From Candidatus Thorarchaeota archaeon (GTDB lineage: Archaea; Asgardarchaeota; Thorarchaeia; Thorarchaeales; Thorarchaeaceae): 19,426 nucleotides of DNA. Shown here piece after piece: positions 7,781-16,364 of the stretch (positions are counted from its first letter, which is position 1; every line of letters starts with the position of its first letter). The stretch is taken from the NCBI GenBank assembly GCA_003345595.1, contig PRDI01000121.1, positions 1 through 19,426 on the forward strand, written 5' to 3'. The translations under genes and the position numbers were made by a program. A model generated the notes under the pieces. That model was not told where the DNA came from. It did no database searches and saw nothing but the letters and a program-made list of their open reading frames with translations.

Positions 7781-9106
7781 TTAGTCCTGTGCAGCCATAG
7801 ACTCTCCATTTAACGTGCCATCCATCAAGGAGCCATAGGCTGTCATATCGAAATGCCCGTGGCCTGACAGATTGAAGAGAATTGATCTTTCTTCGCCTCT
7901 TTTCTTTGCCTCAAGGGCGAGGTCGATGACTGCCTTTATTGCGTGAGACGACTCAGGAGCTGGGACGATGCCTTCTGCTCTGGCGAAAAGGACCCCTGCA
8001 TTCAAGGCGTCGACTTGGTTATAGGCCAATGGTCTGACCCTGCCCTCCTGTATCAGTGCGCTTAGTGTTGGAGCCGAGCCGTGATATCGTAGCCCGCCTG
8101 CATGTATTTTCGGCGGAATGAAGTTCGCGCCGAGAGTGTACATTTTCAGTTTTGGTGTGAGTCCTGCTGTGTCCCCAAAGTCGTAGCGATACTCGCCGCG
8201 ACTGAGCTTGGGGCAGGCATCTGACTCGGCAGCGATGAACTCGGTGTCCTTGAATCTGGGGTCGGCGATGAAGGGATATGACAGACCCGCGAAGTTGCTG
8301 CCGCCACCAACACAGCCAACAATGTAGTCTGGTTTGGTGTCGATTAGATTCAGTTGCTGCTTTGCTTCTTGACCTATGACTGTCTGATGGAGTAAAACAT
8401 GGTTCAGGACAGATCCAAGAGTGTATTTCGTGTTCTGGCTGCCAAGTGCGTCTTCGAGAGCTTCGCTAATCGCGATTCCCAGAGACCCGGGGTGTCCTGG
8501 CTGTTCTCGATTGAGTCTTCTCCCAAACTCGGTGTTTTGCGAAGGGCTGGGAACGACTTTCGCTCCGTAGAGTCTCATTAGAGTTCCACGATATGCCTTC
8601 TGTTCATAGCTGACCCTTACCATGTATATCATAGCTTCGAGACCAAAGTGTGAACAGGCGAGGGCGACGGCGCTGCCCCATTGACCAGCACCTGTTTCTG
8701 TGGTGTATCGTTCCACTCCCTCTTTCATGGCATAGTAGCACTGCGCCAGCGCTGTGTTCGTCTTGTGGCTGCCGGTTGGCGAAACATCCTCTCTCTTGTA
8801 GTAGATTCTGGCTGGGGTCTTTAGCATCTCCTCGAGTCCGTACGCTCTCTGAATTGGGGTTGGTCTTCCAAAACGGATCATTGCCTCTCTCACTTCATCG
8901 GGGATTGGTACGGTCCTTTGTTGAGAGACCTCTTGTCGCACGCACTCTTCCGCGAATATTCTTGTCAGTGCTTCGGGATTCACGGGCTCGCCCGTCGTCG
9001 GGTCGATTGGGGGAGGAAGTGGGCTCCGCAGGTAGGGAACTATGTTCACGTAGCTCTTTGGTGTATCATCAGGATCTAGTGCGATTCTGATCTGTTGTCT
9101 TATCAT
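7781..9106 (-). CDS. trpB2: Tryptophan synthase beta chain, type 2 (TrpB2; PLP-dependent)
   Basis: SPTGSHKTN (PLP Lys), TETGAGQWG, HPGSLGIAISEA, LGSVLNHVLLHQT, GCVGGGSNF, IHAGGLRYHG, PAPESSHA, NLSGHG; RBS GTGAGGA (9120-9114). Confidence 0.97.
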   Translation of the reverse strand: MIRQQIRIALDPDDTPKSYVNIVPYLRSPLPPPIDPTTGEPVNPEALTRIFAEECVRQEVSQQRTVPIPDEVREAMIRFGRPTPIQRAYGLEEMLKTPARIYYKREDVSPTGSHKTNTALAQCYYAMKEGVERYTTETGAGQWGSAVALACSHFGLEAMIYMVRVSYEQKAYRGTLMRLYGAKVVPSPSQNTEFGRRLNREQPGHPGSLGIAISEALEDALGSQNTKYTLGSVLNHVLLHQTVIGQEAKQQLNLIDTKPDYIVGCVGGGSNFAGLSYPFIADPRFKDTEFIAAESDACPKLSRGEYRYDFGDTAGLTPKLKMYTLGANFIPPKIHAGGLRYHGSAPTLSALIQEGRVRPLAYNQVDALNAGVLFARAEGIVPAPESSHAIKAVIDLALEAKKRGEERSILFNLSGHGHFDMTAYGSLMDGTLNGESMAAQD

Positions 9107-9295
9107 CTATGATTCCTCACATTCATGTTTCCCGAGGACTGCGTGCGGTTTCCCATCTGCAGCATGTACTATGACATCGCCTTGGTCGAGTCTTCGTACG
9201 ACTGACTTGTGAGAGAACGACGCCGTGGAAGAATATCGCGCGAGGATGGTATCTACAAAACTAGCTGTAAGGGTCGCTTCAGACCCCTGCCCCAT
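9107..9295 (-). CDS. Possible 62-aa upstream ORF abutting trpB2 (TAG-ATG)
   Basis: TAG at 9109-9107 directly precedes the trpB2 ATG in the same frame; no RBS of its own; no recognisable domain. Confidence 0.3.
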   Translation of the reverse strand: MGQGSEATLTASFVDTILARYSSTASFSHKSVVRRLDQGDVIVHAADGKPHAVLGKHECEES

Positions 9296-9315
9296 TGGTA
9301 GGGACGCACGCTCAT
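9253..9315 (-). CDS. Putative Trp leader peptide MSVRPYQWGRGLKRPLQLVL
   Basis: ATG at 9315 lies 8 nt after a perfect GAGGTGA RBS (9330-9324), which is about 32 nt downstream of TTTATAA (9369-9363). It is the first ORF of the predicted trpB2 transcript; Trp at codon 8. Confidence 0.6.
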   Translation of the reverse strand: MSVRPYQWGRGLKRPLQLVL

Positions 9316-9362
9316 CGCGATTTTCACCTCAGGACTGGAGGCAGGCGTTCGTGGCGGCCATC

Positions 9363-9408
9363 TTATAAAGATTGCTCATAGCTGTACATCAATGTACACT
9401 TCTGTGCA
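9363..9408 (-). promoter_or_regulatory. trpB2 promoter (TTTATAA) with phased TRP-box-like sites TGTACA-N4-TGTACA-N4-TGTGCA
   Basis: tgtaca 9383-9388, tgtaca 9393-9398, tgtgca 9403-9408 and degenerate tgctca 9373-9378, all at 10-bp period. TGTACA is the TrpY TRP-box consensus. Confidence 0.75.
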
Positions 9409-9621
9409 TCTACTAGCTCACCCCAAGAGAGATTTCAACCCGAACCACAGCAGAAACGAAGTACCTGGAACATGGGTGCGGTGATGGTTTGTCAGAGATC
9501 ACCTGCGTTCGTTGACATGAGATCGATGCTGATGCAGTTGGGTGTGGCGGGAACTGCAGTCGTTGGCAGTGATTCAGCCGCTCAGAAACACCGGTCGATG
9601 ATGGCTGCGTACTAAGCAAGC

Positions 9622-9664
9622 TTTATATATGAATGTAGTACATGACTGTACAACGCACAGTACA
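9622..9664 (+). promoter_or_regulatory. padR promoter (TTTATATA 9622-9629) with downstream operator (AGTACA-N4-TGTACA; TGTAC-N8-GTACA)
   Basis: agtaca 9637-9642, tgtaca 9647-9652, gtaca 9660-9664, overlapping the expected TSS. Confidence 0.7.
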
Positions 9665-9717
9665 AGGTGAGATACAATAATGTGCAAAACAGCCCACAAG
9701 GAGGCGAGTACTGAGCC

Positions 9718-10092
9718 GTGAGCGGTGGATCTGGTCCTGCAACAGAGGAATTTGAGAGATGGTCCACTGAGGTGAAGAAAGGTGCTGCGGCCCTCGCAAT
9801 CCTGGCAGTGTTGGAGGAAGGTCCTGCCTACGGGTACGAGATTGTCAAGCGCCTGAGCGACAAGGTGACATTCCTTCAGCTTGAACAGGGAACAGTATAT
9901 CCGTTGCTTCGTCGTCTCGAGAAGGAGCGGAAACTGTTGATCAGTGAATGGGACTATGCGGACCCGACGAAACCGAAGAAGTACTACCGCCTTGAGGACG
10001 AGGGCAAGAGAGCCCTCAAAATGATGACCGAAACATGGTCTGTACTAACGAATGAAATGAAAGAACTACTTAGGAGAGTTAACGCACAATGA
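9718..10092 (+). CDS. PadR-family transcriptional regulator
   Basis: 'KKGAAALAILAVLEEGPAYGYEIVKRL...EQGTVYPLLRRLEK...PKKYYRL..EG' is the canonical PadR signature; GGAGGCGA RBS before GTG. Confidence 0.93.
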   Translation: MSGGSGPATEEFERWSTEVKKGAAALAILAVLEEGPAYGYEIVKRLSDKVTFLQLEQGTVYPLLRRLEKERKLLISEWDYADPTKPKKYYRLEDEGKRALKMMTETWSVLTNEMKELLRRVNAQ

Positions 10093-14576: not shown

Positions 14577-16364
14577 ATGAAAGGGATGCACAACAAGCTG
14601 CTGTCAGCTGACCTGTCTGTCCAATCATCAGCGGAGTCAACAATAGATGCCGAAAAGCTCACGGGCTACTTAGGTGGTCGTGGGTTGGGTGTCAAGCTCT
14701 TCACGTCACTCGTCAATCCCCGGACAGACCCACTTTCTCCAGACAACTGCCTTGTTTTCGCAACAGGTCCTCTGACCGGATCAATCGTTCCAACGAGTGG
14801 CCGCTTCTCACTTGTTACAAAGTCCCCACTGACTGGCCTAATCCTCTACTCCAACACGGGCGGCTCCGTCGGACCTGCTCTGAAGAGCACAGGTTACGAT
14901 TGTCTGGTAGTGAGGGGGCGTCTTGATGAACCTTGCTACATGCTGGTTTCAGAGGGTGAAGAACCCCAGATCATCCCTTGCCGTGACCTATGGGGCTTGG
15001 ATACTCTGGAAACTCAGAACAGACTTGAATCTCTAGGCCTTGGCAGGTTCCACTCTCTCATGATTGGGCCAGCCGGGGAGAATGGAGTCCTCTATGCGTC
15101 TATCATGAATGATGGCAACCATCGCGCTTTTGGCCGAGGTGGGTCAGGAGCAGTGATGGGCGCGAAGAATCTCAAAGCAATTGTCATAAAGGTCGGAAAG
15201 GCGAAGCCGGATATTGACAACCCGGAACTGCTCACCACGTATGTGAAATCCGCCAGAGACAAGATGAAGGTCGCCCCGATCACAAACTCATCCCTTCCCA
15301 TGTTTGGAACCGCCGGTCTCCTAAACGTCATCAACGAACTAGGAATGCTCGGAATCAAGAACTTCCAAGTTGGCTATTCGCACGAAGCTGAGAATCTCAG
15401 CGGAGAAGCAATCCGCGAGCAGATATTCGAGAAAGACGAGGGATGTTATGCCTGTCCCATTCGTTGCGGCCGAATGACAAAGACCCAATCAATGAATGGG
15501 AAGGGTCCTGAGTTCGAATCCCTACTGCTTGGGACACTGACCAGCATATTCGATCTGGTGACTGTCACTGAAGCAAACTATCACTGCAACCTTCTAGGCT
15601 TGGACACTGTTTCAACCGCAGGAACTATCAGCTGCGCAATGGAGCTCCGTGAGAAGGGAGCCCTGAACGACGATAGGATTCAGTTTGGAAACAAAGACAT
15701 CCTGATTCCTTTGATAGAAGACATTGCTTACAGACGGGGCATCGGAGAAGAGCTGGCGTCCGGGTCTGCCCAACTGGCCGCAAAACACGGTATGCCTGAT
15801 GCGGCGGTGCATGTCAAGGGAATGGAGCTCCCTGCATATGATCCTCGCGGCGCGATTGGCCATGCACTTGGCTATGCCACCTCGAATAGGGGCGGGTGCC
15901 ACCTGACAGGCTACTTGGTCTCGATGGAGGTCTTTGCCGCACCCAAGAAGATTCCGCGTGCCAGCACAGGTAGCAAGGCTGACCTGCTAGTGCTGAAGCA
16001 ACATCAGAGCGCAATCGAGGACAGTCTCATTGTCTGCAAGTTCGCAGGCTATGCTCTAGGGTTCGATTTCTACTCAAGGTTTGCCACTGCTGTGACTGGT
16101 GAGGACCTCAATATCACTCGCCTGATGAAGATTGGCGAGCGAATCTACAACCTTGAGAGGCTCTTCAACGTCAAGGCCGGACTATCAAGGAAGGACGACA
16201 CCCTGCCAAAGCGGTTCCTGACAGAACCTCTGAGCGAGGGGCTGTCAAAGGGGAGAACCGTGCCACTGGATTCAATGCTTGAAGACTACTACAGGCTCAG
16301 GGACTGGGACAAAACAGGTGCGCCATCTAGAGCAAAGTTGGAGGAGCTTCACATAAAGCCGTAG
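14577..16364 (+). CDS. aor: Tungsten-dependent aldehyde:ferredoxin oxidoreductase family protein
   Basis: YLGGRGLG, DPLSPDN, KSPLTG, GRGGSGAVMGAKNLKA, CYACPIRC, GPEFES, GLDTVS, PAYDPRG, NRGGCH, DDTLPKRF, YYRLRDWD. ATG 14577 (MKGMHNKLL) fits the family N-terminus; alternative start 14544. Confidence 0.95.
   Translation: MKGMHNKLLSADLSVQSSAESTIDAEKLTGYLGGRGLGVKLFTSLVNPRTDPLSPDNCLVFATGPLTGSIVPTSGRFSLVTKSPLTGLILYSNTGGSVGPALKSTGYDCLVVRGRLDEPCYMLVSEGEEPQIIPCRDLWGLDTLETQNRLESLGLGRFHSLMIGPAGENGVLYASIMNDGNHRAFGRGGSGAVMGAKNLKAIVIKVGKAKPDIDNPELLTTYVKSARDKMKVAPITNSSLPMFGTAGLLNVINELGMLGIKNFQVGYSHEAENLSGEAIREQIFEKDEGCYACPIRCGRMTKTQSMNGKGPEFESLLLGTLTSIFDLVTVTEANYHCNLLGLDTVSTAGTISCAMELREKGALNDDRIQFGNKDILIPLIEDIAYRRGIGEELASGSAQLAAKHGMPDAAVHVKGMELPAYDPRGAIGHALGYATSNRGGCHLTGYLVSMEVFAAPKKIPRASTGSKADLLVLKQHQSAIEDSLIVCKFAGYALGFDFYSRFATAVTGEDLNITRLMKIGERIYNLERLFNVKAGLSRKDDTLPKRFLTEPLSEGLSKGRTVPLDSMLEDYYRLRDWDKTGAPSRAKLEELHIKP

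Follow-up and report, generated by a model that had tools for sequence, protein, structure and literature searches.

Introduction

To our knowledge, very few archaeal regulator-operator pairs have been described and none has been tested in Asgard archaea. The box recognized by the archaeal regulator TrpY has the consensus TGTACA, and Karr et al. are said to have described TrpY at the Methanothermobacter trpB2 promoter in 2008. The TrpY of Methanothermobacter thermautotrophicus is a tryptophan-responsive repressor of trp genes that binds TRP boxes, according to the summary in PMC6737238 of the TrpY/TRP-box work by Xie & Reeve (2005) and Cubonova et al. (2007). In Thermococcus kodakarensis, the TrpY homologue neither binds nor regulates the trp promoter, and the trp regulator is Tar (TK0271), an activator with the site TGGACA-N8-TGTCCA (PMC6737238). 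Our literature search found no paper that joins TrpY with Asgard archaea, Thorarchaeota or Bathyarchaeota. Here we analyzed a stretch of 19,426 nucleotides from a Candidatus Thorarchaeota archaeon (contig PRDI01000121.1; called the window below), in which a first-pass annotation had pointed to TRP boxes at the promoter of trpB2.

The Thorarchaeota arrangement shares with that of M. thermautotrophicus the several copies of TGTACA hexamers at trp promoters, with a stand-alone trpB2 among the genes that have them upstream, an NF053754-type HTH + ACT regulator in the lineage, and tryptophan-synthesis genes as targets, the likeness being one of family profile. It differs in the setting of the Thorarchaeota trpY, which follows a GNAT gene at a locus unlinked to its targets and, having no boxes there, shows no sign of autoregulation. 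The regulon also differs, consisting of trpB2, an Aro8/KAT-II-like aminotransferase and a TFE-beta-like gene in organisms most of which are without trpE. The boxes take the longer form ATGTACA-N4-TGTACAT and keep fixed distances to the TATA box, a leader frame with a Trp codon follows the promoter, and the regulator protein falls below the family cut-off.

In other Asgard archaea, Bathyarchaeia and Thermoproteota, divergent trpY-trpB2 pairs show the same boxes, target gene and regulator family. Regulator and target share one intergenic region there, making autoregulation likely in those lineages, whereas in Thorarchaeota the pair is separated and only the trpB2 side has kept the boxes. Tar of T. 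kodakarensis is likewise an archaeal regulator of aromatic amino-acid genes with a site upstream of the BRE/TATA, but it belongs to another protein family, uses another site and is an activator. The enterobacterial TrpR and trpL attenuator also combine an operator at the promoter with a Trp-codon leader frame downstream; their parts, however, are not homologous to those described here, where the basal machinery is archaeal, and the likeness is one of layout alone. The Thorarchaeota boxes are a new example of a known switch, unusual only in that the regulon is rewired and that linkage and autoregulation have been lost.

Results

Helically phased boxes at the trpB2 promoter

Reading the sequence from 9000 to 9800, we found four hexamers with a period of exactly 10 bp: TGCTCA at 9373-9378, TGTACA at 9383-9388, TGTACA at 9393-9398 and TGTGCA at 9403-9408. 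The array adjoins TTATAAA at 9363-9369, and the minus strand toward trpB2 reads AGCAATC-TTTATAA. Because this BRE/TATA lies on the minus strand, the promoter faces the minus-strand gene at 7781-9106. The features of the promoter are as follows.

7781-9106, minus strand: trpB2, encoding a TrpB-like PLP enzyme, the regulated gene (NF009057, 669 bits; TIGR01415, 641 bits)
9363-9369, minus strand: trpB2 TATA box, TTTATAA on the minus strand, with C/TTTATAA at the same place in 12 genera
9370-9378, minus strand: BRE-like stretch that reads AGCAATC toward trpB2 and overlaps the fourth, degenerate hexamer of the phased array
9383-9388, unstranded: proximal TRP box, TGTACA, 13 nt upstream of the TATA box
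9393-9398, unstranded: middle TRP box, palindromic TGTACA, 23 nt upstream of the TATA box, reading ATGTACA with its flanks
9403-9408, minus strand: distal TRP box, TGTGCA on the plus strand and TGCACA in the direction of trpB2, 33 nt upstream of the TATA box

The fourth hexamer, TGCTCA on the plus strand and TGAGCA on the minus strand, is a degenerate box that keeps the phase and overlaps the BRE. The four hexamers at a 10-bp period abutting the trpB2 BRE/TATA, as first annotated, were thus confirmed in the sequence, and the fourth was found to be conserved in several genera. A search of positions 9050-9760 against Rfam returned no known RNA family. A scan for sigma-70 promoters and terminators gave nothing useful, this type of scan being irrelevant for an archaeon.

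Conservation of the boxes

Single TGTACA hexamers occurred 7 times in the window where 3.4 were expected, an enrichment that was not significant. The pair TGTACA-N4-TGTACA occurred once in the 2,732,298-bp assembly, at the 9383/9393 site before trpB2, and about 0.14 such pairs were expected per assembly from the 625 TGTACA hexamers counted. A weight matrix was built from box sites in other genomes and then run on this genome; its three best sites were 9393 (20.3, the best), 9383 (20.1) and position 15562 of contig C27 (20.1). A near-match at C99:24997 lay inside a 594-codon reading frame and was taken as chance.

The trpB2 orthologues of 12 Thorarchaeota genera all had phased TGTACA-type boxes just upstream of C/TTTATAA. 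The boxes stood 13, 23 and 33 nt from the TATA box in 7 of the 12 genera, the in-phase box at offset 33 included, and in variants phased at 10 bp in the remaining ones. Exact TGTACA was enriched 77-fold in the 55-nt stretches that directly precede the trpB2 TATA boxes of these 12 genera: the stretches, 715 nt in total, held 17 copies, as many as the remaining 55,205 nt of these loci. The hexamer that overlaps the BRE, ATG(A/C)G(C/T)AAT with TGMGYA on the trpB2 strand, was conserved before the TATA box in several genera.

In the 31 Thorarchaeota genomes searched, TGTACA-N4-TGTACA occurred 43 times, compared with 9 times for the reversed control. A chance origin of the boxes was ruled out by the rarity of the single pair, this family-wide excess and the 77-fold positional enrichment. 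As far as sequence can tell, the boxes upstream of trpB2 are a real, conserved operator.

A box regulon in Thorarchaeota

The flanks of the pairs defined an extended site, ATGTACA-N4-TGTACAT. We inspected 41 box-pair sites for the gene downstream, with the following outcome.

21 of 41 sites: before a class I/II aminotransferase of about 423 residues (Aro8/KAT-II-like), downstream of pyrF
8 of 41 sites: before a 117-residue winged-helix/four-cysteine protein (TFE-beta-like)
3 of 41 sites: before trpB2
1 of 41 sites: before hisG, a pair in a single genome, 266 nt before the gene (L044, G015:C71)
1 of 41 sites: before trpE, an exact pair in G022
7 of 41 sites: miscellaneous or coding

The most common carrier of the box pair in Thorarchaeota was the Aro8/KAT-II-like aminotransferase gene (L040-L067, e.g. 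L040:1501-2924), whose product has as its best solved relatives Pyrococcus PH0207 (a KAT-II homologue), the T. profundus multiple-substrate aminotransferase MsAT, LysN and human KAT-II. At its promoter, the box pair lies downstream of a conserved TATA-like AGAAACAGATAAAGG element, with an extra box upstream. In the genome under study, only the last 49 codons of this gene were assembled, at a contig end (G000:C109:18392-18538).

The anthranilate synthase gene trpE (PF04715) was found in 4 of the 61 Thorarchaeota genomes and was absent from those of this genus. All four genomes having trpE carried TGTACA-type boxes upstream of its TATA box. The rarity of trpE in the family and the lack of any PF01842 ACT match in this genus suggest that TrpB2 works as a stand-alone enzyme, perhaps in indole salvage. 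Boxes were thus present before trpB2, before trpE where that gene occurs and before the aminotransferase gene, which bore out the enrichment at tryptophan-related genes that the first-pass annotation had proposed to look for. These boxes at tryptophan and aromatic amino-acid genes form a predicted regulon rather than a single site. We also noticed a box pair, in a single genome, 190 nt before the gene for TFB (TFIIB) (L232, G041:C266).

The box pair lay about 95-120 nt before the start codon of the 117-residue winged-helix/four-cysteine protein, a position conserved in 8 genomes. This genome has a one-mismatch copy, and at least 9 Thorarchaeota genomes in all had the pair before this gene. The copy here is TGTACA-N4-AGTACA at G000:C27:15562-15577, about 120 nt upstream of a 114-residue winged-helix gene at 15694-16035 (L247) that adjoins the Gar1, SRP19 and FtsJ genes. 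The winged-helix protein carries an invariant C-x-C-x2-C...C...C motif. The best profile match of the 117-residue protein was the winged helix of the human Pol III subunit RPC6/RPC39 (E 2e-6), and its look-alike clusters carry Rpc34/B-block domains. These features make it resemble the general factor TFE-beta. In other Asgard families its homologues were without boxes, although trpB2 there does have them.

A TrpY-family regulator in Thorarchaeota

The ACT domain PF01842 had no match in this genome; in relatives, it detected TrpY-like proteins only weakly, in frames of about 175 residues, one of which was a full-length match to NF053754 (153 bits, E 7e-45). Because PF01842 detects these proteins so weakly, NCBIfam NF053754, "TrpY family transcription regulator" (HTH + ACT-like, curated cut-off 180 bits), was the right probe. 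With it, the search for a TrpY homologue that the first-pass annotation had suggested gave one full-length match per genome in 54 of the 60 other Thorarchaeota genomes, among them 23 of 23 high-quality genomes and all three congeners. The Thorarchaeota proteins scored 152-169 bits, which is below the curated 180-bit cut-off. Among the congener genes are those at G001:C10:16998-17489 and G003:C4:376571-377062. The boxes at several genes, together with these TrpY-family homologues, support the proposal that a TrpY-type regulon extends to Thorarchaeota. The guess of an Asgard lineage in the first-pass annotation also proved right.

The annotation had also remarked that the window holds no trpY, and the NF053754 search found none in the whole of this assembly either, which is 83% complete. 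The end of contig C117 (45187) aligns with the trpY neighborhood of congener G001 and stops some 400 bp away from the gene; of that neighborhood, no less than 9 kb are unassembled here. Since C117 ends about 400 bp short of the syntenic position, the most plausible reason for the missing trpY is a gap in the assembly.

A GNAT acetyltransferase gene precedes trpY by 20-50 bp in Thorarchaeota (e.g. L083:416-1672), and the two are probably co-transcribed. The 1.5 kb to each side of trpY contained no box pair in any of 30 Thorarchaeota loci and single hexamers in 4; autoregulation therefore cannot serve as evidence for a link between regulator and operator here. In six other Asgard families, trpY was divergent from trpB2 in 20 of 20 loci, and in 17 of these the protein scored 183-200 bits, over the cut-off. 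The short intergenic region between the two genes holds TGTACA-N4-TGTACA or close variants in most of these loci, placed between the shared TATA region (TTTAAAT box) and the start of trpY. Divergent trpY-trpB2 pairs were also seen in 20 of 50 loci of Bathyarchaeia, Hodarchaeota, Brockarchaeota and Thermoproteota. VDRRTV, the putative recognition helix, did not vary between the Thorarchaeota proteins and the box-adjacent TrpY proteins.

A leader frame downstream of the operator

Two further features lie between the promoter, from which transcription would start near 9340, and trpB2.

9324-9330, minus strand: Shine-Dalgarno-like GAGGTGA of the leader frame, with GAGGTG conserved 7-10 nt before the leader start codon
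9253-9315, minus strand: leader frame MSVRPYQWGRGLKRPLQLVL of 20 codons, including a Trp codon (9292-9294), together with a small hairpin

Across orthologues, the trpB2 leader frames had 17-20 codons with an invariant Trp codon, the nucleotides CCA(A/C)TGG being invariant as well, and their consensus was M.SV...QWHWGPRGPV. A 5-bp hairpin follows the leader, and compensatory changes were seen at two of its pairs. All four Thorarchaeota genomes with trpE (L237-L240) had a leader frame, MTRR...RRDC(H/V)W, before that gene. The trpB2 and trpE leader peptides differ from each other, and each has a Trp codon near its end.

The leader frame is a putative second, post-initiation tier of control at trpB2. 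The two-tier layout, repression plus a leader peptide, which had been read from this one sequence at the outset, held up in that a conserved Trp-codon leader frame and hairpin lie downstream of the operator. In a second trpB2 paralogue (L038, G016:C6:22493-23800), the TATA box, Shine-Dalgarno sequence, leader frame and hairpin were kept and there were no TGTACA boxes; the two tiers are therefore separable.

What binds the boxes, and with what effect

We consider it probable that 9373-9408 is a tryptophan-regulon operator at which the Thorarchaeota TrpY would bind and repress trpB2 in a tryptophan-dependent manner. TrpY is most likely the binder, because trpY adjoins the boxes in other Asgard archaea, VDRRTV is conserved and the biochemistry of the Methanothermobacter protein is published; that binding would respond to tryptophan, and that its effect would be repression, is suggested by analogy with that protein. 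The binder would be a TrpY-family member with an N-terminal HTH and a C-terminal ACT-like domain, encoded elsewhere behind the GNAT gene. Its targets at trpB2 would be palindromic boxes of the extended form ATGTACA-N4-TGTACAT, which share one helical face, lie immediately upstream of the BRE/TATA and run into it. On the model of the Methanothermobacter protein at the trpB2 promoter of that organism, TrpY carrying tryptophan would occupy the strong boxes, 13-38 nt upstream of the TATA box, and from there spread cooperatively across the weak in-phase box into the BRE and TATA box. Such an extension is suggested by the layout, in which the strong boxes are aligned on one side of the helix and the weak box, in phase with them, lies over the BRE; it would keep TFB/TBP off and turn trpB2 off when tryptophan is plentiful. 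The Trp-codon leader frame downstream would add a second tier.

Homology alone does not prove TrpY function, since the T. kodakarensis homologue neither binds nor regulates the trp promoter. The boxes could instead be a conserved tryptophan/aromatic operator bound by another transcription factor, with the TrpY-like protein in some other role, as might be suspected from T. kodakarensis, where Tar and not the TrpY homologue (TK1227) regulates trp (PMC6737238), and from a Thorarchaeota TrpY that scores below the family cut-off and whose gene has moved behind a GNAT gene, without boxes. We think this unlikely, because the box sequence is the TrpY consensus and not the Tar site TGGACA-N8-TGTCCA, trpY adjoins the same boxes and the same target gene in sister Asgard families, the HTH recognition helix is conserved, and both TrpY and the boxes are near-universal in Thorarchaeota. 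Even with TrpY as the binder, the sign of its effect could be reversed: it might activate trpB2 by recruiting TFB/TBP from upstream of the BRE and be released or switched by tryptophan. Strong boxes upstream of the BRE/TATA, at trpB2 as at trpE, stand where archaeal activators such as Tar have their sites, and the box pair downstream of the TATA-like element at the aminotransferase promoter means that two promoter classes could respond oppositely. Activation nevertheless seems quite improbable to us, given that the array runs in phase into the BRE with its fourth, degenerate box, which fits occlusion, and that the sole characterized TrpY is summarized as a repressor (PMC6737238), reportedly also at a trpB2 promoter with upstream boxes.

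Two proteins encoded next to boxes could also be thought of as their binders. One is the product of the following gene.

9718-10092, plus strand: PadR regulator gene, neighbor of trpB2, followed by a gene for a HAAS-domain membrane protein

By this account, PadR would co-control trpB2 and its own operon without any dependence on tryptophan. The padR promoter here does contain AGTACA-N4-TGTACA at 9637-9652, with GTACA three times, and padR and trpB2 are divergent neighbors in this genome and in G001. Across 20 PadR loci, however, trpB2 was adjacent in only two (this one and one congener), and the box pair was absent from all 18 without it; where PadR is encoded elsewhere in a genome, the boxes are still found before trpB2. 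Moreover, PadR orthologues have a palindrome of their own, RCTRTD-N5-HAYAGY, 70-107 nt before padR in 15 of the 20 loci, the GTACA repeats of the padR promoter are not kept even in congener G001, and the weight matrix scored 14.6 at padR against about 20 at the trpB2 boxes. PadR as the box binder was rejected on these comparative data (20 PadR loci and the 12-genus trpB2 set), and we give the idea almost no credence; the explanation by PadR that the first-pass annotation had set against its own reading thus fails, with no box pair in 18 PadR loci and a separate PadR palindrome. The other protein is the 117-residue winged-helix/four-cysteine protein, taken as an autoregulated factor that binds the boxes itself. 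A box pair before a factor's own gene is a pattern often seen with autoregulation; here it is conserved in 8 genomes, and the copy at C27:15562 is among the three top-scoring sites. This too is hardly credible in view of the resemblance of the protein to the RPC6/RPC39 winged helix, the Rpc34/B-block domains of its look-alikes, its TFE-beta-like Cys motif and the homologues without boxes in other Asgard families.

With TrpY as the most likely binder, the TrpY/TRP-box/trpB2 link would be ancient and widespread, spanning Asgard archaea, Bathyarchaeia and Thermoproteota, and the Thorarchaeota would offer a case of regulon reshaping upon loss of a biosynthetic operon. Novelty may lie in the unexpected aminotransferase and TFE-beta-like members of the regulon and in the stacked leader frame. 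A more far-reaching proposal, which we put forward tentatively and with some doubt, is that the TrpY switch was uncoupled from its own gene, rewired to a tryptophan salvage module and a TFE-beta-like gene, and stacked on a leader at trpB2 and trpE. If so, the salvage module would consist of a stand-alone trpB2 and an Aro8/KAT-II-type aminotransferase in organisms mostly without a trp operon, the TFE-beta-like target would tie tryptophan supply to the basal transcription machinery, and trpB2 and trpE would have an archaeal design of repression plus attenuation in two tiers. For Asgard biochemistry, the TrpY protein of a congener and a 50-bp operator provide a pair defined by sequence.

The padR promoter and the adjoining frame

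PadR-HAAS pairs were conserved in 19 loci of the same family. In all PadR orthologues, the TATA box is followed by the palindrome, roughly ACTRTRTAAYRCAYAGT; the count of 15 among 20 loci refers to a looser form of it. In the padR promoter of this genome, the palindrome reads ACTGTACAACGCACAGT (9645-9661) and follows TTTATATA (9622-9629). It probably serves as a PadR autoregulatory operator, and the GTACA repeats in the padR promoter are mostly a by-product of it. The AGTACA-N4-TGTACA at 9637-9652 is at the same time a TRP-box pair with one mismatch, lying over the expected padR transcription start. TrpY cross-control of padR in this species is possible, though unsupported, and the 9637-9652 pair is not conserved in G001. 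The trpB2 BRE/TATA on the minus strand is nearly identical to its plus-strand counterpart at padR, which reads AGCAAGC-TTTATATA (9615-9629).

Lastly, the TATA box at 9363-9369 is palindromic and could also fire through the boxes, toward a plus-strand frame of 47 codons at 9472-9615. This frame lies between the boxes and the padR promoter and matched no family; it was kept open in congener G001 despite many substitutions.
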